Made by a program: the position numbers and the translations under genes. The notes under the pieces are model-generated. The model did no database searches. It was not told where the DNA came from and saw nothing but the letters and a program-made list of their open reading frames with translations. Of a DNA stretch of 64,000 nt, positions 1,745-46,405 are shown in pieces; the first letter of the stretch is position 1; each line of letters opens with the position of its first letter. Origin of the DNA: Candidatus Spongiisociaceae bacterium (lineage in GTDB: Bacteria; Actinomycetota; Acidimicrobiia; Spongiisociales; Spongiisociaceae); the NCBI GenBank assembly GCA_965262915.1, contig OZ253564.1:3104001-3168000 (forward strand), in the 5' to 3' direction.

Positions 1745-1864
1745 GTCAAACCCGCAGGACTGCAGGGTCGGCGTTACCCGCGGCTGCCCAGTCCCCCACT
1801 AACCTCGACAGCGCGATTGGAAAGAAGCCGGTCGGACCCGACAATCACATCACAGGAGTCTCTC

Positions 1865-3289
1865 ATTACCTCACACCCTCTCTACTGCGATCTGCTCGTT
1901 ACGGGCGGAGTGGTGGTCACTGTGGACGACCGGCGCCGGGTGATCGATCCGGGAGCGGTCGCCATTGCCGGAGAACGGATCGTCGCGGTCGGTAGCGCCG
2001 CCGACCTGGGCGGTTACCGGGCGAAGCGCGTCATCGATGCCAAGGGGAAGGCGGTACTCCCTGGCTTGATCGACACCCACCAGCATCTCTTCCAGTACCT
2101 GCTGCGGGGTCTGGGCGAGGGACTGGAGCTATGGCCGTGGCTGTCCGACTTCATGTGGCCGGTCACCACCACGATCTCCACTGACGAGGCCCGGATCGGA
2201 GCACAGATCGGAGCGGTGGAAGCGGCCCGCTCAGGAGTCACCACGGTTCTGGACAACCACTACGCACCCACCGATTTCGACTCGACGATGGCGGTGGCCG
2301 GCGCGATCGAGGAGGTCGGGATCAGGGGCGCGGTCGCGCGGGGCATGACCGGAGAGCTGACCGGGATGGCAGCCAAGCATGGCCTCGCCGGTGAGTTGTT
2401 CCGATACTCGAACCGCGAGGAGATCGAGATCAGCCGGGCGTGCATAGCGGCGCGACCGCCGACCAGCCGCGTGGGGGTCTGGCCGGCGCCGCTCAACATC
2501 ATCTATGTGGACCAGCGTCTGGTGGTGGAAGCAGTGGCTCTGGCCCGGGAGAAGGGCACCGGCTGGCACTCGCACTGTTCGGAAGCCTCCAACGATCCGG
2601 TCTTCTACCTCGAGGAATACGACCGCCGTCCGGTGGTATGGATGGCGGAGCAGGGTCTGCTGGGTCCCGAGACCACGCTGGCACACGGCATCTTCCTGGA
2701 CGATCAGGAGGTTGAACTGGTCGGGGACTCACGCACCGGCATCGCCTACTGCCCGATCTCGCACCAGTACATCGCGCTAGGCGTCATGCGCCTGCGCGAC
2801 CTGAGGAGCGCCGGGGCGACCGTGGGTCTGGGCCTCGACGGGGGCAGCGGCCACCGCTTGGACATGTTCGCCTGCATGAAGCAGGCGGTACTCCTGCAGC
2901 GTGTGCACTCGCAGAACCCCACCGAGTCGAACGGCGAGGAGGCCATCGAGCTCGCCACCCGCGTCGGCGCAGAGTACATGGGGATCGACGCCGGGGTCAT
3001 CGCGCCCGGAAAGCTGGCCGATCTGGTGATCGTCGATCAGTCCGGTCCGCACCATGCACCGCTCCACCGCACCGTCGCGTCCGTCGTCTACTCCACGAGC
3101 GCCGCCGACGTGACCCACACGATCGTCGGTGGAGAGGTGGTCTTCGAGGACGGCCACTGCACGAAGGTGGACGAGGCGGAGGTCATCGAGGAGGCGAACG
3201 GTCGGGCGGCCGATCTCGTCGTACGAGCCGGACTGGGCCCGCTCCTGGAACCGTGGCGGATGGGACCGGCACCCGGGGGGAGCCGGTGA
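1865..3289 (+). CDS. Metal-dependent amidohydrolase/deaminase (MTA/SAH deaminase, Atz/Trz-like)
   Basis: PGLIDTHQH, HSHCSE, LAHG, GLGLDG, PGKLADLV. Start is either TTG 1817 or ATT 1865 (AGGAG upstream; aligns with paralog start). Confidence 0.85.
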   Translation: MTSHPLYCDLLVTGGVVVTVDDRRRVIDPGAVAIAGERIVAVGSAADLGGYRAKRVIDAKGKAVLPGLIDTHQHLFQYLLRGLGEGLELWPWLSDFMWPVTTTISTDEARIGAQIGAVEAARSGVTTVLDNHYAPTDFDSTMAVAGAIEEVGIRGAVARGMTGELTGMAAKHGLAGELFRYSNREEIEISRACIAARPPTSRVGVWPAPLNIIYVDQRLVVEAVALAREKGTGWHSHCSEASNDPVFYLEEYDRRPVVWMAEQGLLGPETTLAHGIFLDDQEVELVGDSRTGIAYCPISHQYIALGVMRLRDLRSAGATVGLGLDGGSGHRLDMFACMKQAVLLQRVHSQNPTESNGEEAIELATRVGAEYMGIDAGVIAPGKLADLVIVDQSGPHHAPLHRTVASVVYSTSAADVTHTIVGGEVVFEDGHCTKVDEAEVIEEANGRAADLVVRAGLGPLLEPWRMGPAPGGSR

Positions 3290-3708
3290 GACCCCAACCG
3301 GACTCGGTCCGGATGGTGGCCGTCGTGGGGGCGGGCGTCATGGGCCACGCCATCGCCCGGGTCTTCGCGCAGGTCTGACCGTCCACCTGGTCGATCCGCC
3401 AGACCTGATTCCCGAGAGCCGCCGGAGCATGGGCCTCGACGGGTCGCTCTAGGAAAGTGCTGAGAAACCCCCGTTGGCTCGACGGTCGATGACAAAATGC
3501 CACGTCAGCGGACGACGGGCCAACCGATTCCCCGTTTTCCAGCATTCTCCTACCTGGCGGACCCGGTGGAGCGCGGCTACTTCGGTCCCGCGCGGGCGCC
3601 GGATTCTAGGACTACTGCGGCCGCGCGGAGGTGCTGCGCAAACGGGACCTGGCACACCCGGCGGTCGTCGACACTTTCGAGGCGGCCGATGCTCTCGACC
3701 CGGTGTGA
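3286..3708 (+). pseudogene. 3-hydroxyacyl-CoA dehydrogenase family pseudogene with central part missing
   Basis: GTGA overlap at 3286. VAVVGAGVMGHAIARVFAQ then frameshift to GLTVHLVD. C-terminal remnant YLADPVERGYFG / RAGAGF*DYCGRAEVLRKRDL ends at TGA 3708. Confidence 0.8.
3453..3549. mobile_element. 97-bp MITE-like element with imperfect 15-bp TIRs
   Basis: CTAG-GAAAGTGCTGAGAAA ... TTTTCCAGCATTCTC-CTAC (11/15 TIR match), with internal IR GTTGGCTCG/CGGGCCAAC. Confidence 0.55.
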
Positions 3709-3746
3709 GTTTCCCCAGCCATTCCCTCGGAATGTAAGGTGCGAGG

Positions 3747-4562
3747 GTGACTGCAGACACTCCCCTGCCCGCGGGCTCGCCATCCGGCCTCGCCCAGGCC
3801 ATAGAGATCGCAGGTGTTACCAAGCGGTTCACGATGTCGAGACGGCAGTTCCTGGTGGCGGTCGACGACATCGATCTCTCGGTGGCGCAGGGAGAGTTCG
3901 TTGCCATCATCGGTCCGTCCGGATGCGGCAAGTCGACCATCCTCCGGATGCTGGCCGGTCTGGAGAGGCCGACGGCGGGAACCGTGCAGCTCAACGGGGC
4001 GTCGCCCGCCGAGTTGGTGGCTGCCCACCGCCTCGGGGTTGCCTTCCAGGAGCACGCCCTCCTGCCATGGCTCTCCGCATGGGACAACATCGCCCTCCCG
4101 TTCCGGGTAATGGGCGCCAAGCCCGACGCCGACCGCATCTCCTCCCTCATCCGTCTGGTGGGGTTGAGCGGTTTCGAGAGGGCCCGACCCAAACAGCTGT
4201 CCGGCGGTATGCGGCAGCGGGTCGCCATAGCCAGAGCGTTGGCTCTCGAGCCCGAACTGCTGCTGCTGGACGAACCGTTCGGGGCGCTCGATGCGGTGAC
4301 GAGGCGCCGGATGAACCTGGAACTCCAATCCATCTGGGCGGAGCAGCGCATCACCTCCGTCCTCGTGACGCACTCCGTTGACGAAGCTATCTTCCTGGCC
4401 GACCGGGTCATCGTGCTCACCGAACGACCCGGCCGGATCAAAGTCATCGAGAAGGTCCCCTTCGGCCGGCCCCGGAGCCGGGAGTTGATGACCACCGAGG
4501 AGTTCCATTCCCTCGCTGACAAGCTGATGCTCGCCATCGACACCGGTGAGGGGACCGATTGA
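3747..4562 (+). CDS. ABC transporter ATP-binding protein, NitT/TauT/SsuB type
   Basis: GPSGCGKST, LSGGMRQR, LLLDEPFGALD, VTHSVDEAIFLADR. Confidence 0.92.
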   Translation: MTADTPLPAGSPSGLAQAIEIAGVTKRFTMSRRQFLVAVDDIDLSVAQGEFVAIIGPSGCGKSTILRMLAGLERPTAGTVQLNGASPAELVAAHRLGVAFQEHALLPWLSAWDNIALPFRVMGAKPDADRISSLIRLVGLSGFERARPKQLSGGMRQRVAIARALALEPELLLLDEPFGALDAVTRRRMNLELQSIWAEQRITSVLVTHSVDEAIFLADRVIVLTERPGRIKVIEKVPFGRPRSRELMTTEEFHSLADKLMLAIDTGEGTD

Positions 4563-4841
4563 CGGGAGGAGCCCGGTGCGCCGTAGCCCGGTCCGGGCCT
4601 TCCTTCCGATGCCCGCAGGCCGTCTGGCCGGTCCGGTCATGGTCGGGGTGGCACTCAAGTAGGATCAAAGAGACCTGTGTCCTGCCGGCTCCTGCCGCGC
4701 CCGGACGGATCGTTCGACCGATCGATGCGACTGTTCGGCCGGTATGCGGGTAGGTTGCGGGACGGCAAGCGCTCCCGGTCGTTCTGCTCCCGGACAGGCC
4801 AGCTGCCCCCGATGCGGCGATATGACTCGAGAGGACTCCCC

Positions 4842-5807
4842 ATGACCGAGATCGAAGCGACTTGGGACTTTCGGGACCCGTACCTCTGGATGCAGAAGAC
4901 GGCCCGAAGTGCGCTGCCGCCCCTGATCATCACTGCCGCGATCAGCGGAGGCGGCCACGGTAAGGAGTCCAACCCGGCCCTCCCCGAAACCCCGGAGGAG
5001 CAGGCGGAGGAAGCGCGCAGGGCCTACGAAGCCGGCGCTTCACAGATCCATGTGCACGCCCGCGATCCGAACGACTGGAGCCAGTGCGCCGGCAACCCGG
5101 AGGACTACGGGCGGGTGAACCGGATGATCCGCGAGCAGTGCCCGGACGTGATCATCAACAACAGCACCGGAGGCGGTCCCACGTTGACCACCGAGGAGCG
5201 TTACTCACCCCTGTTCGCCGACCCGGCCCCCGATGTGGCAACGCTCAACCTCGGCCCGTTCGTCTCCAGGTTCACGATGCCCGAGCGCCCCGCCCATCTA
5301 CCCCACCCGCGCGGGCCTGTCGAGTACGACATGTGCAGCGGGACGACCTACGGCGAACTCAACCACTACGCGTCCGTAATCGCCGAGCGAGGAATGAAGC
5401 CCGAACTGGAGGTTTACGATCCGGGCCAGTACTGGGTGCTCCGAGACCTCATCTACAACCACAACGTCACACCGCCATACATGGTGCAGTTCGTCCTCGG
5501 CGCCCAGACCGCCTCGTTCCCGACCCCTGCCAACCTCACGTCGCTGATCAACGAGCTACCGGCCGGAGCTCTGTTCTCGGTGATCGGCACGGGCCCCTTC
5601 CAGATCCCTATGAACGTCCTCGGAATTCTCCTTGGAGGCCACGTTCGGGTGGGACTCGAGGACAACATCTACTACCGGAAAGGCGAGAAGGCGACCGGTA
5701 ACGCCCAGTTGGTGAGCCGCATCCGCCGTATCGCTGAGGAGATGAACCGCGAGATCGCCACCCCGGCCCAGGCACGCAGGATGCTGGGCCTTCCCCAGGT
5801 CGCATGA
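4842..5807 (+). CDS. Beta-keto acid cleavage enzyme (BKACE / DUF849, Kce family)
   Basis: LIITAAISGG, GASQIHVHARD, STGG, PELEVYD, GGHVRVGLEDN. GAGG SD before ATG 4842. Confidence 0.92.
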   Translation: MTEIEATWDFRDPYLWMQKTARSALPPLIITAAISGGGHGKESNPALPETPEEQAEEARRAYEAGASQIHVHARDPNDWSQCAGNPEDYGRVNRMIREQCPDVIINNSTGGGPTLTTEERYSPLFADPAPDVATLNLGPFVSRFTMPERPAHLPHPRGPVEYDMCSGTTYGELNHYASVIAERGMKPELEVYDPGQYWVLRDLIYNHNVTPPYMVQFVLGAQTASFPTPANLTSLINELPAGALFSVIGTGPFQIPMNVLGILLGGHVRVGLEDNIYYRKGEKATGNAQLVSRIRRIAEEMNREIATPAQARRMLGLPQVA

Positions 5808-5835
5808 CCTCGACCGAGACGGCCCGGGCGACTGA

Positions 5836-7173
5836 GTGAACAGCAGCAGCCCGCGCCGCCAGGTTCTCGATGTCGGATCGTTCGAGGTCCGCGAGGTGAA
5901 TGCAGGTTCGACAACGTCGTTGCGCGACGGAGTGCTCACCATCGACACCGACGACCTCGCTGGGAGACTGGTGGACGGGACGAACTTCGCTTCGGTCTCG
6001 GTGGACATCGTGCGGCCCGGCGACTCCGTGCGGGTCATCAACGCTATCGATGCCGTGGAACCTCGTATCAAGGTCGATCCCCCCGGCACTGACTTCTCCG
6101 GTCTGCTGACGGGTCCGCGGCAGGTGGGCCTGGGCACCACTCATGCGCTCAAGGGCGTGTCGGTGGTCGAGACCGCGCTCCCGGTTCCGGGCGAACCCGT
6201 CTACTGGCGGGAAGCGGTCTTCGACATGGCGGGAACGAGCGCGAAATACTCACCGTTCTCGGATCTGGCCAACGTGGTGGTGTCCTGCGAACCGACCAGG
6301 GACCTGCTGGAGAGCAGCGGACGCCCCACCAACCTGTTCGAAGGGACACCGGAGGCGGTCGAATACAACAGGGCCGTCCGCTTAGCGGGGCTCAAGGCTG
6401 CCAAGTACCTGGCCGCGACGACGCTCGGACAGACACCCGACCGGGTGGATACGTTCGATCTGGCACCGTTGCCGGACAGCGAACTACCGGCCGTGGTCTA
6501 CCTGTACCAACTCGCCATCCCCTACCTGCACGGGGAGATCGCACCGGGTGCCGGCGCTATAGGTGGAGCGGCGCACCTCCCCACCCCTATCCACCCCAAC
6601 GAGTTGCTGGACGGGGCCCTGGTGTGCGGATGGAACGCGATCGCCTGCATGCGGGAACTCACCTACACCGTCCAGAACCACGCCATCGTCAAGGATCTGT
6701 ACGCCCGCCACGGCAAGGAGATCGACTTCCGCGGGGTGGTGCTGTTCACCAACGGGGACTCGCGGGCCAGCAAGGAGCGCCTCGCCAACCACGCAGCCGG
6801 CCTGGCGATAATGATGGGCGCCGAGGGTGCGCTGATCAACTACGCCGGGGGCGGGCATCCCGCCGTCGACGCCATGATGATCTGTCGGAACCTCGAGAGG
6901 AGAGGCGTGACCACCACCATGCTGTCCATGGAGATGGCTGCCAATCCCGGAGAGTCGGGGTTCGTCCATTTCGTCCCCGAGGCGGACGCCATCGTGAGTA
7001 CCGGGAACTACGAGGAAACCGTGACGTTCGAGGCGGTCGACCGGGTGATCGGCGGCGATTCCCTCATCCGGATCGATGGTGATCCCGCCGGGGCGTTCGA
7101 CGCTCCGCTGGCCATCGTGCTGGCGAGCACCCACCAGTTCGGTCACACCCGTATAAGGGGAGAGGAGTACTGA
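5836..7173 (+). CDS. Glycine/sarcosine/betaine reductase component B proprotein-like subunit (GrdE/GrdG/GrdI family)
   Basis: DIVRPGDSVRV..DAVEPRIKV, HPNELLDGAL, LYARHGKEIDFRGVV, EADAIVSTGN; directly upstream of GrdB-like gene. Confidence 0.88.
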   Translation: MNSSSPRRQVLDVGSFEVREVNAGSTTSLRDGVLTIDTDDLAGRLVDGTNFASVSVDIVRPGDSVRVINAIDAVEPRIKVDPPGTDFSGLLTGPRQVGLGTTHALKGVSVVETALPVPGEPVYWREAVFDMAGTSAKYSPFSDLANVVVSCEPTRDLLESSGRPTNLFEGTPEAVEYNRAVRLAGLKAAKYLAATTLGQTPDRVDTFDLAPLPDSELPAVVYLYQLAIPYLHGEIAPGAGAIGGAAHLPTPIHPNELLDGALVCGWNAIACMRELTYTVQNHAIVKDLYARHGKEIDFRGVVLFTNGDSRASKERLANHAAGLAIMMGAEGALINYAGGGHPAVDAMMICRNLERRGVTTTMLSMEMAANPGESGFVHFVPEADAIVSTGNYEETVTFEAVDRVIGGDSLIRIDGDPAGAFDAPLAIVLASTHQFGHTRIRGEEY

Positions 7174-7182
7174 GAGGCGCCC

Positions 7183-8511
7183 ATGGCCGGCATAGTTCAC
7201 TATCTCAACCAGTTCTTCGGAGGTCTCGGCGGCGAGGACCGGGCCGGAATCGGACCTGTGAGCGAAGCGGGCCCGGTCGGTACGGGCAGGGGCCTGGTCC
7301 GGTTGCTGGAAGGAGGCAACCGGATCGTAGGAACTGTCATCTGCGGCGACAACTACATCGCCCAGGGCGGCGAGGCGGTGGTCGACGAGGTCCTTGATCT
7401 GATATCGGCCCACGACCCGGATGTGGTAGTGGCCGGACCGGCGTTCGGATCCGGACGGTACGGCCTGGCCTGCGGCGCGGTCTGCCGGGCGGTGATCGAA
7501 CGGCTGGGCATACCGGCGGTGACGGCCCTCCATGCCGACAGCCCCGGCGCCCACGAGTTCCGCCCTTGGGTACCCGTCATCCCCACCGCCCAGACCGCGG
7601 CGGGGATGGGCGCGGCCCTCCGCGAAATGGCCCGCCTGGCGAACAAGCTGGGCCGGGGCGAGGAACTGGGCGGCGCCCGGGAGGAGGGTATCCTCACCAA
7701 GGGCCTCCGGCGCAACATCTTCGAGGATAGGAGAGGTTCCACCCGGGCAATCGAGATGCTGCTCGCCAAGATGCGCGGCGAGCCGTTCGAGACCGAGTGG
7801 CCCCTGCCCCGCTACGAGCCCGCCGAACCCGCCGAGCCGTTGGCAAAGGGCCGACACTTCCGGCTGGCGCTGGTGACCGAAGCGGGAATAGTCCCGGCAG
7901 GCAACCCCGACCGGCTGCCTTCGGGATGGGCTAGCGACTGGCTGAAGTACCCGATCGAGGGCAGGGACGGTTTTGCAGAAGGCGAATTCGAGTCGGTGCA
8001 CGGCGGGATCGACACCAGTCTCGCCAACCGCGATCCCGACCGCCAGGTCCCTCTGGACGCCACCCGGTTGCTGGAGACCGACGGCCGCTTGAGCCTTCAC
8101 GATGAGCTGTTCACCACCACGGGCAACATGGGTTCGCTCCGGGACATGACCCGTATGGGCGCCGAGATGGCACGGGCGCTGGTGGCGGACGGGGTCCAGG
8201 CGGTGATCGTGGGGGCCACCTGAGGGACGGGTACGCGTAGCGGGTCTACGCTGGCGAAGTCGATCGAGAACCAGGGAATCCCGGCCGCGCTGGTCACGGC
8301 TCTGGTGCCCCTGGCCGAGTCGGTCGGCGTCCTCCGCATCGTGGCGGGCACGGCCGTCACGCATCCGTTCGGGGACCCTGAGTTGGAGACCGCCGACGAA
8401 CTCGATTACCGCAGGCGGGTGGTGGAAACGGCCATCGCAGCACTCGAGGCGACCGTGTCGGAACCCACGGTGTTCGAAGTCGGCCGCCCGGCGCCGGCCG
8501 CGGTGTCATGA
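7183..8511 (+). CDS. Glycine/sarcosine/betaine reductase selenoprotein B family (GrdB/GrdF/GrdH-like), 442 aa, Sec at TGA 8221-8223
   Basis: IVHYLNQFFGGLGGED, AGPAFGSGRYG, HGGID. After the in-frame TGA the homology continues (GTGTRSGSTLAKSIENQGIP...RIV...VTHPFGDP) to TGA 8511. SECIS-like hairpin present. Confidence 0.9.
8235..8251 (+). promoter_or_regulatory. Bacterial SECIS-like hairpin
   Basis: GCGTAG-CGGGT-CTACGC: perfect 6-bp stem with G-containing loop, starting 11 nt after the UGA as in E. coli fdhF. Confidence 0.8.
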
Positions 8512-8577
8512 GCTGTTTTGGTGGCCGCATCGGGCTCGCAGCCGACCCCGGAAGGGGGAAAGTGTGGTGCGCCCGGC

Positions 8578-8641
8578 CTCGGAGGGTGCTCTAAACGGTA
8601 GGGAGCAACGGCATTCCAGCCGTTCCTGTGCACCCTTCTAA
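8578..8641. repeat. Short dispersed repeat, copy 2
   Basis: GGAGGGTGCTCTAAACGGTAGGGAGCAACGGC (8581-8612). Ends GAGGGTGC / GCACCCTT form an inverted pair. Confidence 0.55.
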
Positions 8642-8666
8642 GGTGAGGCAGCCGAGAGGAGTGACG

Positions 8667-10139
8667 ATGGCTCGACGCCCGAACATACTGTTGCTCCAAG
8701 CCGATCAACTGGCCCCACACTTCCTGCCCGTATACGGCCATCCGGTCACCCTGGCGCCCAACCTCTCGGAGCTGGCCGGGAGCGGCGCCGTGTTCGACTC
8801 GGCCTACTGCAACTCTCCCCTCTGCGCTCCGTCCCGTTTCTCGATGATGACCGGGCAGATGCCGTCCGACATCGGCGCCTACGACAACGCCTCCCCCCTC
8901 TCCCCTGCCGTCCCCACCTTCGCCCACCACCTCCGGCGGGGTGGGTACCGGACGGTCCTGGCCGGGAAGATGCACTTCGTCGGACCCGATCAACTGCACG
9001 GCTTCGAGGAACGCCTCACCACCGACATCTACCCGGCCGACTTCGGGTGGACACCGGACTGGGACGACGCGGACCGAGATCCGGTCCGCTCCTACCTCCG
9101 CCAGGCGGCCCGTGACCTAAAGCGGGCCGGCGTATCGGGACCCACCCTGCAGATGCATTACGACGACGAGGTGACCCACCGGGCGGTCCGGTGGCTCCGA
9201 GGACCGGGCGACGGGGACAGGCCCTTTGCGCTGACCGTGTCCTTCATCCATCCACACGACCCGTTCAACATCACCCGAGCGTACTGGGACCGCTACCGGG
9301 GCCGTGCGATCGACGATCCGATCACCCCACCGGCGGCGACGGATGTGCCGCTCGACGAGCCTTCCCGGCAGCTGCGGGCGGCTCTCGACCTCGACGGCCT
9401 GGACCTGAGCGGCGCCGAGGTGCGCACCGCCCGCCGCGCCTACTACGCGGCCATCAGCTACCTGGACGACTGCATCGGTAAGGTCCTGGCCGCCCTCCGC
9501 GAGCGCGACCGTGGCCGGCCCACCGCGATCATCTTCGTGGCCGACCATGGAGAGATGCTGGGCGAGCGCGGGCTCTGGTTCAAGATGAGCTTCTTCGAGC
9601 GTTCGGCCCGGGTACCGATGATCATCACCGGTCCTGGCATAGCACCGACTCGAGTTGCTACGCCGGTATCCCTGATCGACCTCCTACCCACCCTCCTCGA
9701 CATCGCCGGCGTCGGTGCGGACAGCGCCGGTACCCCCGGAAGGAGCCTGGTCCCGCTGGCGTGTGGCGAACGGGAGACGAGCGCGCCGCCCGTCTTTGCC
9801 GAGATGCTTGGAGAAGGTGTGACGGACCCTGTGGTGATGGTCCGGGAGGACCGCTTCAAGTACATTTCCATCCCCCGAGCAGCTGCGGGCCTCTTCGACG
9901 TCGTCTCGGACCCCGAGGAGCTCTCGGATCTGGCCGGTGCCACCCGCTTCAGGGACGTGGCCGAGCGGCTGGCTGCTCGGGCAGGTGCACGCTGGGATCT
10001 CGCGAGGCTGAGGGCGGAGGTGGTGGCGAGCCAGAGGGACCGGAGATTGGTCCACCTAGCGCTGATCGCCGGCAAGCACACTCCGTGGGACTACTCGCCG
10101 GCGACCGAAGCGGCCGGCTCGTACATACGCAACGTCTGA
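8667..10139 (+). CDS. betC: Choline-sulfatase
   Basis: RPNILLLQADQL, AYCNSPLCAPSR (formylglycine motif), GKMHFVGPDQLHGFEERLTTDIYPADFGWTPDW, C-terminal SQRDRR...PWDY. Confidence 0.92.
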   Translation: MARRPNILLLQADQLAPHFLPVYGHPVTLAPNLSELAGSGAVFDSAYCNSPLCAPSRFSMMTGQMPSDIGAYDNASPLSPAVPTFAHHLRRGGYRTVLAGKMHFVGPDQLHGFEERLTTDIYPADFGWTPDWDDADRDPVRSYLRQAARDLKRAGVSGPTLQMHYDDEVTHRAVRWLRGPGDGDRPFALTVSFIHPHDPFNITRAYWDRYRGRAIDDPITPPAATDVPLDEPSRQLRAALDLDGLDLSGAEVRTARRAYYAAISYLDDCIGKVLAALRERDRGRPTAIIFVADHGEMLGERGLWFKMSFFERSARVPMIITGPGIAPTRVATPVSLIDLLPTLLDIAGVGADSAGTPGRSLVPLACGERETSAPPVFAEMLGEGVTDPVVMVREDRFKYISIPRAAAGLFDVVSDPEELSDLAGATRFRDVAERLAARAGARWDLARLRAEVVASQRDRRLVHLALIAGKHTPWDYSPATEAAGSYIRNV

Positions 10140-10474: not shown

Positions 10475-11878
10475 TTACCGCCGCCACGGTACGAGCAGAC
10501 CGTGTAAGCCGGCTCGGTCGATCAGGTCATCGGCCCGGGCCTGCGCTTCGCTCATCACCGCCTCCTCGTCGACCATGGTGCAACGGCCGTTCTCCAGCAC
10601 GACGTTGCCGTCGATGATCGAATACGCCACATCCGATCCCCTGACACAGTAGGTAAGGGCGGAGACAGTCCTGTGCCACGGTGTGAGATGGGGACTGCGC
10701 ATGTCGACGACGATGATGTCGGCCAGCTTGCCGGGAGCGAGCACACCGGCGTCGATCCCCGCGTAGCGCGCTCCTTCTCTCGTGGCCATCTCCAATGCCT
10801 CTTCACCGTTGCTGATGGTCGGATCCAGGGTATGGACACGCTGGAGCAGGATGGACTGCTTCATCACCTCGAACATGTCCTGGCGGTGGTTGCAGCACGG
10901 ACCGTCGGTGCCGAGACCGATCGGCGCTCCGGAGGCGCGCAGGTCGCGCAAGCGCATGACGCCAAGGGCTATGTACTGGTGGGATATGGGGCAGTAGGCG
11001 ATCCCGGTCTCCGTCTCGCCCACGTGATCGATCTCGGTATCGTCGAGGTAGATCCCGTGAGCGATGGTCGCTTCCGACCCCAGGAGACCCTCCTGGTAGA
11101 GCCATTCGACCGGCCGGATGCCGTACTCCTCGAGATATGTGGGAGGGTCCTCGAGGCGCTCGGAGCAGTGCGTGTGCCACCCAACACCCGCCTCGCGGGC
11201 CAGGGCGACGCTCCGCCGGACCAGGTCCTGATCGTTGTAGATGATGTTGAGGGGCGCCGGCCACACCTCGACGCGGCCTCCGGCCGGGTACGACTCAATG
11301 GCCGTCGTAGTGATCTCGATCTCCTCGTCGTTGGAGTAGGAGAACAGCTCCCCGGCCAGGTTGGACCTCCGAGCGATGTCGGTCGCCTCCCCCGCGATTC
11401 CTCGGGCCACCGCTCCCCGCAGCCCCACCTCGCGGATGGCGCCGGCCACCGCCAGGGTCGTGTCGAGGTCGGACGGCGCGTAGTGGTGGTCGATGACAGT
11501 GGTGGTGCCCGCCTTGACAGCCTCCACCGCCCCCAGCTTGGCGCCGATCCGACCCTCGGCCAGGTTGATGGAGATCGAGTAGGGCCACATGAAGTCAGTC
11601 AGCCAGGTCCACAGCGGCATGCCCTCGCCCAACCCGCGCGCCAGACCCTGGAACAGGTGGTTGTGGGTGTCGATCAGTCCCGGCAGCACGGCGTGGCCGG
11701 TGCAGTCGATAGTGCGGCGTGCCCGGTAGCCGGCCAGGTCAGCGACCGGCCCGACCGCGACGATCCGGCTGCCCGTCACCGCCACGGCCCCCGGTTCGAT
11801 GACCCGGCGGTCGTCATCGACGGTCACCACTGACCCTCCGGTGAGCAGGATGTCGCAGTCCTGGCTTCTCTGGTTCAT
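10475..11878 (-). CDS. Metal-dependent amidohydrolase/deaminase, close paralog of 1865-3289
   Basis: PGLIDTHNH, HTHCSE, GTDG. Shares long blocks with the paralog (WPAPLNIIY, GIAYCPISHQYIALGVMRLRDLR). GGAGG before ATG 11878. Confidence 0.88.
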   Translation of the reverse strand: MNQRSQDCDILLTGGSVVTVDDDRRVIEPGAVAVTGSRIVAVGPVADLAGYRARRTIDCTGHAVLPGLIDTHNHLFQGLARGLGEGMPLWTWLTDFMWPYSISINLAEGRIGAKLGAVEAVKAGTTTVIDHHYAPSDLDTTLAVAGAIREVGLRGAVARGIAGEATDIARRSNLAGELFSYSNDEEIEITTTAIESYPAGGRVEVWPAPLNIIYNDQDLVRRSVALAREAGVGWHTHCSERLEDPPTYLEEYGIRPVEWLYQEGLLGSEATIAHGIYLDDTEIDHVGETETGIAYCPISHQYIALGVMRLRDLRASGAPIGLGTDGPCCNHRQDMFEVMKQSILLQRVHTLDPTISNGEEALEMATREGARYAGIDAGVLAPGKLADIIVVDMRSPHLTPWHRTVSALTYCVRGSDVAYSIIDGNVVLENGRCTMVDEEAVMSEAQARADDLIDRAGLHGLLVPWRR

Positions 11879-11895
11879 CGGGCGGAACCTCCCTT

Positions 11896-12828
11896 TCATC
11901 CGGCGGCCGCGCCGTCCCGGTCGACTTCGGGGGCCGGGATCTTGAGCAGCCGACCGGCCGTACCCCCCATGATGGCTTCCAACTCCTCGGCGGTGAGTTC
12001 GGGCCCGCCAACCTGTTCGGCAACCCGGTTGACGCTCCGGAAGATGCCCGAAGCCACCCCACGGGAACCGGACTTGTGCTTGTCGTTGTTGTCCGACCCG
12101 TAGACCGCCCGATCCAGCGCGCCCAGGCTTCTCAATCTGCCGAGCACCCGGTACAGGTCACGGGGGTCCCCACCAGCGTAATAGGACAGGTCGGCGTAGA
12201 AGTTGGGATGGCGGGCCACGACCGCGATTCCTTCATCGACATAGGGAAAAGCCAGGTAGACGAGGACTTTGAGATCCCGGTAGCGAATGCCCAGTTCGTC
12301 GAGGAGCAGCGGCCGGGCGTGGTGCATGGGAGCGTTGATGATCGGTGTGAAGCCGGTGTGGGTGTGAATGGGGAGGTCGAGGTCGAGGCACTTCTCGTAG
12401 ACCGGCGCCAGCCTCGGGTCAGCAGGATCGTGGTGGTGGTAGGTGGGCAGTAGCTTCATCATGCGGAACCCGTACTCCCGGACGCAACGCTCGATCTCGT
12501 CGGTGGCCTCCCGCACGTCACGCAGCGGATCCACGCACACCACCCCATACAGACGGCCGGGGTGGGCAGCACACTGGGCCGCCGTGTAGTCGTTGGGTAC
12601 GTGCACCTCGTGCTCATCCGGGAACCGCGGATGGTAGGTGGTGCGGCGTAGGTCCGATCCGTGGGCCAGACCGACATCGATACCTGCCTGATCGAGCAGT
12701 TCCACCAGGGCTGCGCCGTCCGTCCACCGGTAGTCCCCGCCATAGGGCCGATACAACTCCTCCATCCACCAGACCGGTGCGTGGCGAGGGGTCTCGGTGA
12801 GGTAGAGGAGCACATCGACGGTAGGCAT
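11896..12828 (-). CDS. Amidohydrolase_2 family protein lacking the N-terminal HxH
   Basis: MPTVDVLLY, NDYTA, KLLPTY, IHTHTG, HPNFYADLS, YGSD. Start set by alignment to the neighbouring paralog. Confidence 0.8.
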   Translation of the reverse strand: MPTVDVLLYLTETPRHAPVWWMEELYRPYGGDYRWTDGAALVELLDQAGIDVGLAHGSDLRRTTYHPRFPDEHEVHVPNDYTAAQCAAHPGRLYGVVCVDPLRDVREATDEIERCVREYGFRMMKLLPTYHHHDPADPRLAPVYEKCLDLDLPIHTHTGFTPIINAPMHHARPLLLDELGIRYRDLKVLVYLAFPYVDEGIAVVARHPNFYADLSYYAGGDPRDLYRVLGRLRSLGALDRAVYGSDNNDKHKSGSRGVASGIFRSVNRVAEQVGGPELTAEELEAIMGGTAGRLLKIPAPEVDRDGAAAG

Positions 12829-12832
12829 CGGA

Positions 12833-13732
12833 TCAATCCATCCGGTACAGCCTGGCGGCGTTGCCGCCCACGATCGCGTCGATCTGCCCGGACGTGAAAG
12901 GCTCCCGGTCCGTACGCTGGGCCACATCGGCGAGTTCCTCCATAAGGTGGGTCCCGATCTGCTGGCCTCCCCCGGTCCGATCCTTGTCGTTGTTGTCCGA
13001 GCCGTAGACCACCCGGTCCAGAGCATCCAAGCCCCGGAGTTTGTCGAGGGCGTCGAAGAGGGGCTCCGGACCGGCCCCGACAAAATAGGCGATATCCGCG
13101 TAGAAGTTCGGATGCCGCGCCACCACCGCGATGCCCTCGTCAACGTACGGAAAGTTGATGTACGCGAGAACGCGCAGGTCGCGGTAGCGGATGCCGACCC
13201 GGTCGAGCGGTTCGGGGTGACCGTACCGGAGCGCCGCCGTGATGATCGGCGAGTACCCGGTGTTCACATGTGCCACGATGCCGAGTTCCAGGCAACTCTC
13301 GAGCATGGGCGCCACCGCCGGGTCGTCGATGTAGTAGTTCTGGTAGGTGGGTAAGAACTTCGACGACCTGAACCCGTATTCCTTCACGCAGCGACGCTGT
13401 TCGATCACCCCGGCTCTGACATCCCGCAGGGGATCGATGTTGGCCACACCGATCAGCCGATCGGGGAACCGGGCCACCTGGCGAGCGGTGTAGTCGTTGG
13501 TTACGAACAGGTTGCGCTGATCGGGGAAGCCGGGATGGTAGGTGGTGCGGCGGATGTCGGAGCCCTGGACCATCCCGATGTCTACCCCGGCCCGGTCGAG
13601 GATGCCCACGATCGCTTCGCCGTCGGTCCAGATGTAGTCGCCGCCGTAGGGCCGGTACAACTCTTCCATCCACCAGAGCGGAGCCTGCTCGGACGACTCG
13701 GTCAGATGGAGATGGCAATCGACCGTTATCAT
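12833..13732 (-). CDS. Amidohydrolase_2 family protein
   Basis: VDCHLH, NDYTA..FPDRLIG, KFLPTY, HPNFYADIA, YGSD. Confidence 0.85.
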   Translation of the reverse strand: MITVDCHLHLTESSEQAPLWWMEELYRPYGGDYIWTDGEAIVGILDRAGVDIGMVQGSDIRRTTYHPGFPDQRNLFVTNDYTARQVARFPDRLIGVANIDPLRDVRAGVIEQRRCVKEYGFRSSKFLPTYQNYYIDDPAVAPMLESCLELGIVAHVNTGYSPIITAALRYGHPEPLDRVGIRYRDLRVLAYINFPYVDEGIAVVARHPNFYADIAYFVGAGPEPLFDALDKLRGLDALDRVVYGSDNNDKDRTGGGQQIGTHLMEELADVAQRTDREPFTSGQIDAIVGGNAARLYRMD

Positions 13733-13825: not shown

Positions 13826-15049
13826 CTACGTATAACTGATGACTCCTTCCTCGGCCATATGTCTCAACTCAGCCTCCCCGTACCCTATCAAGCCTCCCAG
13901 GATCTCCTCGTTGTGCTGGCCGAGGGCAGGCCCGGTGGTCCGCACCTGTCCAGGAGTCGCCGACAGACGGCCGACCAGGTTCTGCATGCGCACAGGCCCG
14001 AGGACGGGGTCCTCGACGGTGGTGACGCTCTCGTTGTGGGCGAATTGCGGATCCTCGAAGATACCGGCGATATCCAGTATCGGGGCGATGGCCGCTCCGG
14101 CGGCCCCGAACGTGGCCACAACCTCGTCGGCATCCCTCTCCGCCACCCACGCTCCAATGACCTCGTCCAACTCGTCTTGGTGCTGGAGCCGTCCGGTGTG
14201 GTTGGCGAACCACTCCTGCTCGGCGAGTTCGGGATGCCCGACCAGGTCGACCGTCCGTTCAGCGGTCGACTGCGAGGAAGCCGACAGTCCCAACCAAACG
14301 CCATCTCTCGACAGGTACGCGTTGCGCGGCGCGGTGAATGGGGCCCGGTTGCCGCTCCGGCCCTGTGCGACTCCTAGCTGGTCGTACACACTGGCCTGCG
14401 GTCCCAGCAACCAGAAGATAGGTTCGTATATCGACAGGTCGATCATCTGCCCCACCCCGGCCTCCGCTTCCCTGGCCCGGAGAGCCGCCAGGGTCAGGAA
14501 GGCGCCGCTGATCCCGGCTATGCCGTCCGCCAAGGCGAACGGCGGCAGGGTCGGTGGCCCGTCCGGATACCCGTTCATATGGGCAAAACCCGACATCGAC
14601 TCGGCCAGAGTGCCGAAACCTGCACGCTCCCGGTACGGACCGGTCTGACCGAAGCCGGTCACCCGTACCATCACCAGCCGCGGGTTTATCTCGCGCAGGT
14701 CGTCCCAACCGAGGCCCCACCGCTCCATGGTCCCCGGACGGAAGTTCTCGACGAGGACATCGGCCCCCTCCACCAGCCGCAGCAACGCCCGTCGCCCGAG
14801 ATCGTGGGAGAGTTTGAGGGTTACGGCCCGTTTGTTGCGGTTGACCACCGCCCACCACAGCGAGACCCCGTCCTTCTCCCAGCCCAGGTTCCGGAGGCTG
14901 TCCCCGCCGGGATGCTCCACCTTGATGACATCGGCGCCGAAGTCCCCCAGCAGGGTGGCCACCATCGGCCCGGCGAACAGCGTGGCCGCATCGACGACCC
15001 TCAACCCCTCCAGGGGGCCTTTCACGTCGTTGTTGAGGTTCTCTTGCAT
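13826..15049 (-). CDS. CaiB/BaiF family (class III) CoA-transferase
   Basis: PLEGLRVVD, LGDFGADVIKVEHPGGD, NRNKR, ENFRPG, GFGQTGPY, PALGQHNEEIL. Confidence 0.93.
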   Translation of the reverse strand: MQENLNNDVKGPLEGLRVVDAATLFAGPMVATLLGDFGADVIKVEHPGGDSLRNLGWEKDGVSLWWAVVNRNKRAVTLKLSHDLGRRALLRLVEGADVLVENFRPGTMERWGLGWDDLREINPRLVMVRVTGFGQTGPYRERAGFGTLAESMSGFAHMNGYPDGPPTLPPFALADGIAGISGAFLTLAALRAREAEAGVGQMIDLSIYEPIFWLLGPQASVYDQLGVAQGRSGNRAPFTAPRNAYLSRDGVWLGLSASSQSTAERTVDLVGHPELAEQEWFANHTGRLQHQDELDEVIGAWVAERDADEVVATFGAAGAAIAPILDIAGIFEDPQFAHNESVTTVEDPVLGPVRMQNLVGRLSATPGQVRTTGPALGQHNEEILGGLIGYGEAELRHMAEEGVISYT

Positions 15050-45031: not shown

Positions 45032-46405
45032 GTGCCGGACGCAGTGCGCAACTTCGACCTGATGATCATCGGCACCGGATCGGGCAATTCGGTGATCGGA
45101 CCGGAACACGACGATTGGGACATCGCAATCGTGGAACGGGGTCGCTTCGGCGGCACCTGTCTGAACGTGGGCTGCATACCCTCCAAGATGTTCGTGTACG
45201 CCGCGGAGATGGCCGAGTTGGCGTCCGACAGCGAACGGCTTGGCGTTCGGACCCGCTTCGATGGCGCAGACTGGTCGTCCATCCGCGACCGTGTATTCGG
45301 GCGGATCGACCCGATCGCCGAGGGAGGTCGCGTCTACAGGGAGGAACTTCCCAACGTGACCGTGTACTCCGGTACGGGGCGCTTCGTCGGACCGAAACAG
45401 GTAGCGGTGGGCGACGAGGTCATATCCGCTGATCGGATCGTCATAGCGGCGGGCGGACGGCCCACCGTGCCCCCTGTGCCGGGCCTGGCCGAGTGCGGCT
45501 ACCACACCTCGGACACGATCATGCGCCTCGACCAGCTGCCCGACCGGTTACTGGTGATCGGAGCGGGGTACATCGCGGCGGAGTTGGGCGGCGTGATGGG
45601 AGCGTTCGGCTCGAAGGTGACCTTCCTGCTGCGGGGCGACACCTTCCTGCGTCGGGAGGACCACGACATCAGCAGCCGGTTCACCGCCGCCTACTCCCGA
45701 CGGTTCGAGGTGCGTACGCACACCCGGCTGCTCGAAGTCCGCCGTGACGGAGACGAGGTGGTCATCAGCTTGGACGACAAGGAGGGGAACCGTGCCGAGT
45801 TGAGGGGCGATGAGTTGCTGGTCGCCACAGGCCGGAGGCCCAACACCGACCGGCTCGACCTGGCGGCGGGGGGAATCGAGGTCGACAGTCGCGGTTTCGT
45901 GATCACCGACCGCCAACTCCGTACCAACGTCGACGGGGTTTGGGCTCTCGGTGACATCACCAATCCCATCCAACTGAAGCATGCTGCCAACCACGAGGCT
46001 CGGGTGGTGCGTCACAACCTGACCAACCCGGATTACCCGGCCACCGTCGACCACCGGTTCATTCCCCACGCCGTGTTCGGCTATCCCCAGATCGCGAGCG
46101 TGGGCCTCACCGAGCAGGAATGTCGACGACAGGACATTCCCTACGTCAGCCACACCCAACCCTATTCCGCGGCCGCCTATGGCTGGGCAATGGAGGATAC
46201 CGACAGCGTGGCGAAGGTCATCGCCCACGCCGAGACCCGCCGGCTACTGGGCGCCCACATCATCGGTCCGCAGGCGCCCACCCTGATCCAGCAACTCATC
46301 CAGGGTATGCACTTCGACCTGACCGTCGACCAGATGGCCCGCGGCCAGTACTACATCCATCCCGCCCTGCCCGAGGTAGTGGAACAGGCTTTGCTGGGGC
46401 TCTGA
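45032..46405 (+). CDS. mtr: Mycothione reductase
   Basis: IIGTGSGNS, GGTCLNVGCIPSKM, QLKHAANHE, AYGWAMED, QYYIHPALPEVVE. Confidence 0.92.
   Translation: MPDAVRNFDLMIIGTGSGNSVIGPEHDDWDIAIVERGRFGGTCLNVGCIPSKMFVYAAEMAELASDSERLGVRTRFDGADWSSIRDRVFGRIDPIAEGGRVYREELPNVTVYSGTGRFVGPKQVAVGDEVISADRIVIAAGGRPTVPPVPGLAECGYHTSDTIMRLDQLPDRLLVIGAGYIAAELGGVMGAFGSKVTFLLRGDTFLRREDHDISSRFTAAYSRRFEVRTHTRLLEVRRDGDEVVISLDDKEGNRAELRGDELLVATGRRPNTDRLDLAAGGIEVDSRGFVITDRQLRTNVDGVWALGDITNPIQLKHAANHEARVVRHNLTNPDYPATVDHRFIPHAVFGYPQIASVGLTEQECRRQDIPYVSHTQPYSAAAYGWAMEDTDSVAKVIAHAETRRLLGAHIIGPQAPTLIQQLIQGMHFDLTVDQMARGQYYIHPALPEVVEQALLGL

Follow-up and report, generated by a model that had tools for sequence, protein, structure and literature searches.

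The window analysed here is a stretch of 64,000 nucleotides (nt) from the genome of a Candidatus Spongiisociaceae bacterium of the Acidimicrobiia (contig OZ253564.1; G000:C1:3104001-3168000 in our genome set). It encodes a GrdB-type subunit of the selenoenzyme protein B in which the selenocysteine (Sec, U) motif reads UxxGxxS in place of UxxCxxC. The protein belongs to a real, conserved and hitherto undescribed variant branch of the known glycine reductase family: its UGA codon is decoded as Sec, the altered motif is conserved throughout its clade, grdA and grdC co-occur with it and are in several lineages linked to it, and GrdD is absent. Together with the GrdE-type subunit encoded directly upstream, the protein probably constitutes the substrate-specific protein B of a glycine-reductase-type system that depends on GrdA and GrdC.

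A GrdB protein with a cysteine-free Sec motif

The comparison set comprises 91 full-length GrdB sequences from 88 loci, extracted with read-through of the TGA and, as a set, biased toward relatives of the query; two short sequences and a frameshifted paralogue from the same genome are left out of it, and one locus (L072) yielded no motif match. The features that define the protein and its decoding in the window are as follows.

7183..8512, + strand: GrdB-family selenoprotein B, 442 residues, Sec347, Sec motif U-G-T-G-T-R-S-G (translated with TGA=U; PF07355, TIGR01918)
8221..8223, + strand: in-frame TGA read as selenocysteine (U347); a TGA stands at the same position in all 91 GrdB sequences collected
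8235..8251, + strand: selenocysteine insertion sequence (SECIS) hairpin GCGUAG-CGGGU-CUACGC, beginning 11 nt past the UGA, supported by covariation over the 91 sequences
5836..7173, + strand: GrdE-type alpha/proprotein subunit of protein B (PF09338, E 8.5e-97), directly upstream of GrdB

The first part of the open reading frame (ORF; 7183-8223, +) ends at the TGA, and the frame continues to 8512; read-through of 7183-8512 (+) with TGA translated as Sec gives ...VIVGAT-U347-GTGTRSGSTLAK..., in which U347 is followed by G-T-G-T-R-S-G versus the usual G-T-C-T-R-C-G. The translation bears out the Cys-free Sec motif, with both companion cysteines replaced, that had been read from the window in the initial annotation. 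The protein matches PF07355 with 390.7 bits (cut-off 22; E 8.8e-117) and, over residues 4-432, TIGR01918 with 427.5 bits (cut-off 65.45). It scores below the equivalog cut-offs of glycine reductase GrdB (TIGR01917; 407.8 versus 602.2 bits), sarcosine GrdF (NF040794; 425 versus 800 bits) and betaine GrdH (NF040795; 382.3 versus 775 bits). GrdB family membership and an in-frame UGA with its SECIS element are therefore both found, whereas the UxxCxxC motif is replaced by UGTGTRSG.

Relative to five orthologs, the ratio of non-synonymous to synonymous substitution rates (dN/dS) of the gene amounts to 0.14-0.23 up to the UGA and to 0.08-0.15 beyond it; the low values past the UGA indicate that the C-terminal 95 residues are translated and constrained. 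Gene callers cut the protein at 346 residues, and the 35 database clusters nearest to it (73-99% identity, 345-352 residues) all stop there. No PDB chain was matched by sequence, and no solved structure of the protein B family was found; an AlphaFold2 model of the window protein (predicted local distance difference test score 89.5) gave structural matches to generic two-Rossmann-domain folds alone (template modelling scores 0.15-0.26). The conserved N-terminal cysteines of GrdB are C54, C97 and C101.

Contigs labelled as RNA, from three runs that include a sponge metatranscriptome, match the gene identically or nearly so, with two spanning the UGA, and cover portions of all three genes of the unit formed by GrdB, the GrdE-type subunit and the upstream beta-keto-acid cleavage enzyme (BKACE); as DNA carry-over into such libraries is possible, they give a weak hint of GrdB expression. 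Positions 4800-8600 of the window are almost fully present (word share at least 0.91) in 17 public runs from 7 studies, and contigs labelled as sponge metatranscriptome match positions 8010-8210 without a single difference.

Distribution and phylogeny of the UxxGxxS branch

A survey of the class found a GrdB relative in 7 of 301 genomes, that of the window included, and an ortholog in one; with so sparse a yield, the comparison was moved to a species-wide genome collection and a pattern scan of metagenomes. The closest relatives of the protein (76-81% identity) are encoded at eight loci of Acidimicrobiia metagenome-assembled genomes, some of which are titled Candidatus Spongiisociaceae or Spongiisocius, and in G182, a genome of the same family as the window. 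UGTGTRSG is identical in all eight of these orthologous loci and in G182. The exact degenerate DNA motif occurs on at least 120 public metagenome contigs; among the 80 metagenome loci analysed, the N-terminal part of GrdB precedes the motif in 66, and a GrdE-type gene is present in each of the 27 that retain at least 1.3 kb of upstream sequence. The motif is neither chance nor sequencing error, because it is identical in orthologous loci and frequent in metagenomes.

Across the comparison set the motif takes six forms: UGTCTRCG (46 sequences), the core of the string STUGTCTRCG that had rightly been taken as canonical, UGTGTRSG (24), UGTGTRCG (15), and UGTSTRCG, UGSGTRSG and UGSCTRCG (two each). 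The column of the second companion residue holds Ser throughout the S group (26 of 26) and Cys in the other 65 of the 91. A third cysteine, found 25 residues past Sec in 90% of canonical sequences, is also gone from the S group, and the three lost positions are occupied in the window protein by G350, S353 and T372. A column survey of the GrdB sequences found no compensating Cys gained in the S group, which the Ser column alone distinguishes.

A maximum-likelihood tree, obtained for the 91 sequences by a quick search with support from the Shimodaira-Hasegawa-like approximate likelihood ratio test only, unites 21 UGTGTRSG sequences (10 from Acidimicrobiia, 11 from Dehalococcoidia) in a single clade at support 96, and a second S-type group of five has support 90 (three Dehalococcoidia and two Desulfobaccales with UGSGTRSG). 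The S label needs two changes across the tree; the U..G..S proteins, whose monophyly the initial annotation had put up for examination, fall there into the clade of 21 and the group of five. S-type GrdB spans three phyla: Actinomycetota, Chloroflexota and Desulfobacterota. Two Dehalococcoidia loci (L112 and L113, in genomes G319 and G321) carry a further GrdB variant, U-G-T-C-N-R-C-G, adjoining GrdE, GrdC and GrdA; both genomes hold a separate UGTGTRSG copy elsewhere.

We found no description of a Cys-free branch in the literature searched, including the covered portions of the selenoproteome reviews PMC1088965, PMC10298544 and PMC13188914 (supplements lay outside the scope of the search), in keeping with the initial view of an undescribed variant.

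SECIS element and decoding of the UGA

The 5′ arm of the SECIS hairpin contains the Ser codon AGC (8239-8241), and the 11-nt spacer the Gly codon GGT (8230-8232), just where the initial annotation had placed them. In all 91 sequences, base 1 of the Cys/Ser codon is paired with base 3 of the codon two places downstream, as U-A in 65 and A-U in 26, with no unpaired case. The U-A class consists of UGC with GCA in all 65 canonical sequences and the A-U class of AGC with GCU or UCU in all 26 of the S group; the stem pair R3-T1 is U-A in 85 sequences and C-G in six. The Ser codon is AGC in 26 of 26 S-type sequences, and the spacer Gly codon uses all four GGN.

The SECIS stem therefore fixes the choice of Ser codon, not the loss of Cys. 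The suggestion that RNA constraints contribute to the motif holds to that extent and no further: the stem accepts the Cys codon UGC equally well, so that an RNA constraint does not explain why Cys was lost. Replacement of Cys by Ser required a compensating change in the stem (GCA to GCU or UCU) and is no RNA artefact. The folding energy of the element (minimum free energy -19.1 kcal/mol; z -0.06 versus shuffles, i.e. not better than shuffled sequence) is uninformative because the DNA is 64% GC; covariation was used instead.

The genome encodes tRNA-Sec, SelA, SelB and SelD. Single in-frame TGA codons were also seen in each of three thioredoxin-fold matches and in SelD (G000:C1:2053539-2053676, 750044-750193, 751385-751537 and 4560939-4561865), and the genome probably has a larger selenoproteome.

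GrdA and GrdC accompany the branch whilst GrdD is missing

Partner families were searched genome-wide. No GrdA, GrdC, GrdD, thioredoxin or TrxB gene occurs in the 64-kb window, as had been noted initially; all matches fall outside it. The sole GrdA match in the genome (3478236-3478676; 189.9 bits) has one TGA and a CFVU motif, and the sole GrdC match (3480213-3481613) scores 589.3 bits against a cut-off of 450; both lie approximately 366 kb from the window GrdB. Seven matches to thioredoxin PF00085 are present, the nearest to the window at 3286493, and a trxB (398358-399254; 403.6 bits) and trxA (399408-399704) pair is unlinked to GrdB. No GrdD match exceeds the cut-off of 350 in the genome; the best, 22.4 bits at 3032406, is PlsX-like, as in control genomes. 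The initial annotation had set its proposal of a stand-alone two-subunit enzyme against the prospect that grdA, grdC and grdD lie elsewhere in the genome; of these, a Sec-containing grdA and a grdC do, and grdD was not found.

The same pattern holds for the branch at large. Including that of the window, 25 genomes with UxxGxxS GrdB were compared (G000, G182 and G301-G323; all but the first were reached through S-type loci). Each of the other 24 has a single grdA, which contains an in-frame TGA, and a single grdC above cut-off, giving 25 of 25 in the genome-wide co-occurrence check that had been called for, whilst GrdA was found in none of 14 control genomes. GrdD exceeds its cut-off in none of the 24, the best matches being PlsX-like at 22-28 bits as in the controls, so grdD is found in 0 of 25. 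All nine Acidimicrobiia relatives have the UxxGxxS protein as their single PF07355 match, and thus no other B component explains the retention of grdA and grdC; CFVU is kept in all 10 GrdA proteins of the Acidimicrobiia clade, that of the window genome included.

Physical linkage points the same way. At locus L029, grdA-grdC divergently adjoin BKACE-GrdE-GrdB, and in 10 Dehalococcoidia loci (L031 and L103-L111) the order is grdB(UGTGTRSG)-grdC-grdA, with grdB directly upstream; four of the 27 metagenome loci that extend 2.5 kb or more downstream show this order as well. In seven of eight relatives (L117-L123; not L116), grdC-grdA are flanked by orthologs of neighbours of the window GrdB: an ortholog of the amidohydrolase at 10475 in six, two of which also have a choline sulfatase ortholog, and orthologs of the amidohydrolase at 1817 (81%) and of an ATP-binding-cassette (ABC) ATPase (79%) in the remaining one. 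No GrdE-type gene adjoins grdB in L103-L111. Upstream of grdB-grdC-grdA in L103 (approximately 3300-4950, -) lies a peroxiredoxin-like ORF with an in-frame TGA in the context W-U-P-Y-C, a probable further selenoprotein.

Among 80 genome loci, grdC is present in 46 and grdD in 28 of these, all Bacillota-type clusters; some of the other grdC loci end at a contig edge. The whole non-Bacillota GrdC/GrdA lineage appears to run the Grd system without GrdD.

The neighbourhood of GrdB in the window

The GrdE-type and GrdB genes stand among the following genes of the window.

1817..3289, + strand: ATZ/TRZ-deaminase-type amidohydrolase (PF01979; best NCBIfam matches are deaminase/chlorohydrolase families, all below cut-off)
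4842..5807, + strand: beta-keto-acid cleavage enzyme (BKACE/DUF849; PF05853, E 1.2e-82); the ORF opens at 4677, with the likely start at ATG 4842
8628..10139, + strand: choline sulfatase, BetC type (TIGR03417, 587.7 bits versus cut-off 433)
10475..11899, - strand: second ATZ/TRZ-type amidohydrolase (PF01979)
11896..13732, - strand: two tandem Amidohydro_2 genes (PF04909), conserved neighbours
13826..15049, - strand: family III CoA-transferase, CaiB/Frc type (PF02515, E 1e-119; NCBIfam equivalogs all below cut-off)

Cys271 of the GrdE-type subunit (codon 6646-6648) aligns with the canonical GrdE Cys and is invariant in six GrdE-type sequences, whereas a betaine-type GrdI (L097:13455-14780, beside GrdH and a betaine transporter) has Ser in this column. 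We take the column to be the pyruvoyl-precursor and cleavage site, as reportedly described for GrdE by Bednarski et al. 2001.

BKACE, whose best solved relative is the 3-keto-5-aminohexanoate cleavage enzyme 2y7d (E 5e-45), is found directly upstream of GrdE-GrdB in eight of eight orthologous genome loci and in metagenome loci L139 and L141. An ortholog of the 1817..3289 amidohydrolase (83-85% identity) directly precedes BKACE in six of the eight, and an Amidohydro_2 homolog (50-87% identity) lies just 3′ of GrdB on the opposite strand in all eight. The orthologs of the 10475..11899 amidohydrolase that flank grdC-grdA in relatives (89-90% identity) are those of L117 and L119-L123. Choline sulfatase is beside GrdB in none of the eight orthologous genome loci but is so in metagenome locus L141; its orthologs next to grdC-grdA (68-69% identity) belong to relatives G304 and G182. 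The CoA-transferase is conserved in L023 alone among the orthologous loci.

Ten large ORFs at 15-46 kb of the window showed no link to the reductase system. A class-I pyridine-nucleotide disulfide oxidoreductase of 457 residues (lipoamide-dehydrogenase/mycothione-reductase type; 45032-46405, +) lies 37 kb from GrdB and is not conserved with it.

Relation to known reductases

Both subunits fall into the same Pfam and NCBIfam families as glycine reductase protein B of Clostridium sticklandii and Eubacterium acidaminophilum, which acts with GrdA, GrdC/GrdD and thioredoxin. Sec position, SECIS stem and the aligned pyruvoyl-precursor Cys are shared with the clostridial protein, and GrdA (with CFVU), GrdC, TrxA and TrxB are present in the genome. 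The window GrdB differs in having UxxGxxS for UxxCxxC, in loss of the third nearby Cys, and in an identity of 43-48%, below the equivalog cut-off. Unlike in the clostridial system, there is no GrdD in any of the 25 genomes, the partners are unlinked in the window genome with no grdX, and BKACE and amidohydrolase genes are the neighbours where trx genes stand in clostridial clusters.

The sarcosine (GrdF/GrdG) and betaine (GrdH/GrdI) proteins are likewise substrate-specific B components that share GrdA and GrdC. Of the substrate-specific models those for sarcosine score best, with GrdG at 235 bits beside the GrdF score given above, both far below their cut-offs (780 and 800). In contrast to GrdI, the window alpha subunit keeps its Cys, and the known GrdF and GrdH examples examined carry UGTCTRCG (e.g. 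GrdH of L097).

D-Proline reductase, PrdA/PrdB, is a pyruvoyl- and Sec-containing reductase of the same superfamily and, to our knowledge, the only one of its known members to function independently of GrdA and GrdC. Homology of the window proteins to it is weak and partial: PrdB reaches 64.3 bits versus a cut-off of 300 (residues 268-390 only) and PrdA 30.7 versus 700, so that neither scores as an equivalog. PrdB needs its own resolving Cys beside Sec; the window GrdB has none.

Closest in motif are the UxxGxxC proteins, which account for 15 of the 91 sequences and in which the first Cys is already Gly; examples come from Ca. Formimonas warabiya DCMF, Desulfosporosinus and Desulfobaccales, and both paralogues of the window genome are of this type. 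Unlike the window GrdB, they keep the second Cys, and they lie on other branches of the tree.

The two paralogues of the window genome both have the motif UGTGTRCG. One (G000:C1:3481650-3482956; L007 15626-16962, -), the third GrdB of the genome, adjoins grdC-grdA in a grdE-grdB-grdC ... grdA cluster; it is split over two frames near residue 235, as a frameshifted pseudogene or through an assembly error in this single-contig genome. In that cluster, grdC and grdA are separated by a radical-SAM gene encoded on the other strand and by a small aspartic-protease-like ORF; sugar-type ABC transporter and kinase genes follow beyond grdA. The other paralogue (G000:C1:2787799-2789088; L009 9751-11100) is intact, is 44% identical to the window protein, has a GrdE-type gene approximately 4.5 kb downstream, and occupies a long tree branch of its own.

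Proposed mechanism and alternative explanations

In the accepted scheme, protein B holds the amine on its carbonyl group whilst Sec takes up the carboxymethyl group; GrdA is the carrier of this group and the site of the Se-S redox cycle, and protein C forms the acetyl thioester (the consulted portions of PMC10298544 and PMC13188914). We infer each step for the window system, and its substrate, by analogy with this scheme. The GrdE-type subunit would cleave itself at Cys271 to generate the pyruvoyl group, which would form an imine with an N-substituted glycine through the primary or secondary amine of the latter; Sec347 of GrdB would then attack the alpha carbon with departure of the amine, and the carboxymethyl group would be handed to the Sec of GrdA (CFVU). 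The GrdA Cys would resolve the selenoether, so that GrdC ends up with an acetyl thioester and GrdA with a Se-S bond, with housekeeping TrxB/TrxA as the candidate donor pair for re-reduction of GrdA. Because the lineage has no GrdD, release of the acetyl group from GrdC probably bypasses acetyl phosphate, and acetyl-CoA is the simplest form in which it could depart. The adjacent BKACE would probably supply the substrate (an N-substituted glycyl unit), consume the product, or both. We have low confidence in any particular substrate within the class of N-substituted glycines with a primary or secondary amine.

As the redox chemistry resides entirely on GrdA in such a scheme, protein B would need only a nucleophilic selenol and no thiol, and the branch could therefore lose all three near-Sec cysteines with its chemistry unchanged. 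The sole loss would likely be the option of parking Sec as an internal selenenylsulfide.

Several points weigh against assigning the window proteins to a GrdA/GrdC-dependent protein B of this kind. Within 10 kb, grdA or grdC is found in two of 22 S-only genome loci, compared with grdA in 41 and grdC in 36 of 47 canonical loci, and where the two are not adjacent, as in the window and most loci, the partner link rests on co-occurrence. The parts consulted of PMC6778437 and PMC13188914 treat UxxCxxC as required, likely as a contact or docking site for GrdA or as protection of Sec. The window protein scores under every substrate-specific NCBIfam cut-off, and glycine, sarcosine and betaine are each therefore unproven as substrate. 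The prediction of Cys271 as the cleavage site comes from alignment and from what is reported for GrdE. Without GrdD, the classical end product, acetyl phosphate, has no explanation. Finally, BKACE and choline sulfatase both suggest betaine, which cannot use a pyruvoyl group.

This last point bears on a reading that we regard as improbable, in which the system is GrdA/GrdC-dependent but acts on betaine or betainyl-CoA, delivered by BKACE from dehydrocarnitine or by choline sulfatase from choline-O-sulfate, and releases trimethylamine. BKACE enzymes include dehydrocarnitine-cleaving activity, which could yield betainyl-CoA. The invariable position of BKACE upstream of GrdE-GrdB, the choline sulfatase equivalog directly downstream of GrdB in the window and L141 and beside grdC-grdA in two relatives, and the nearby CaiB-type CoA-transferase all fit such a supply. 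However, a quaternary amine forms no imine, and the alpha subunit keeps the pyruvoyl-forming Cys where bona fide GrdI has Ser; GrdH is, moreover, the lowest of the three substrate-specific scores (382 versus 408 and 425 bits), and the annotated neighbours include no betaine transporter, carnitine dehydrogenase or choline oxidation gene.

The stand-alone GrdE-like and GrdB-like selenoenzyme of the initial annotation, which would dispense with GrdA and GrdC and pass its intermediate to another acceptor or a thiol such as mycothiol or CoA, fares worse still, and we consider it very unlikely. What speaks for it is the lack of grdA, grdC and trx genes within 64 kb, the 20 of 22 UxxGxxS loci with neither grdA nor grdC inside 10 kb, the alteration of a motif proposed in the literature as the GrdA contact, and the CoA-handling genes close by (BKACE and the CoA-transferase). 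It does not stand up to the presence of grdA and grdC in all 25 genomes, nine of which have the UxxGxxS protein as their only GrdB, nor to the grdB(S)-grdC-grdA operon of the 10 Dehalococcoidia loci and the direct adjacency of grdC-grdA in L029. Loss of the vicinal Cys also counts against it, since it would leave a PrdB-like reductase that acts independently of GrdA without its necessary resolving thiol.

That the gene is a decaying or inactive paralogue can be dismissed: a B-component copy without UxxCxxC was called likely a pseudogene in a genome paper (PMC6778437, as far as the consulted part of it goes) and the window genome has two more GrdB paralogues, but the reading frame is unbroken, the TGA is conserved, as is the SECIS through compensatory changes, dN/dS is 0.08-0.23, the motif persists over three phyla and at least 120 metagenome contigs, and the protein is the sole GrdB in nine relatives that retain grdA and grdC.

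Returning to a GrdA/GrdC-dependent protein B for an N-substituted glycine, a more specific form of it can be outlined, which we put forward as a speculative proposal with a small chance of being correct in full: BKACE-GrdE-GrdB(UxxGxxS), GrdA and a GrdD-less GrdC would make up a CoA-coupled reductive pathway in sponge-associated Acidimicrobiia. BKACE uses acetyl-CoA and releases acyl-CoA. With acetyl-CoA it would cleave a 4-(N-substituted)-3-oxobutyrate (for instance dehydrocarnitine or a demethylated form of it), yielding acetoacetate together with an N-substituted glycyl-CoA; the Cys-free protein B would reductively strip the amine; and GrdC would give back the C2 unit as acetyl-CoA, not acetyl phosphate, closing a catalytic acetyl-CoA cycle.

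Implications for the glycine reductase family

The near-Sec cysteines are probably not essential for carboxymethyl transfer to GrdA, because a Cys-free branch under purifying selection keeps GrdA and GrdC, in part within one operon; the branch thus offers a natural test of how protein B works. In a lineage without GrdD, the textbook ATP-yielding acetyl-phosphate step must be absent or done differently. If it exists, the CoA-coupled pathway would extend glycine-reductase-type systems to a new class of substrates and to a new output of energy or carbon. Given the fixed link to BKACE and deaminase-type amidohydrolases, sponge symbionts may process nitrogenous compounds from their host by an anaerobic route that has gone unrecognised.

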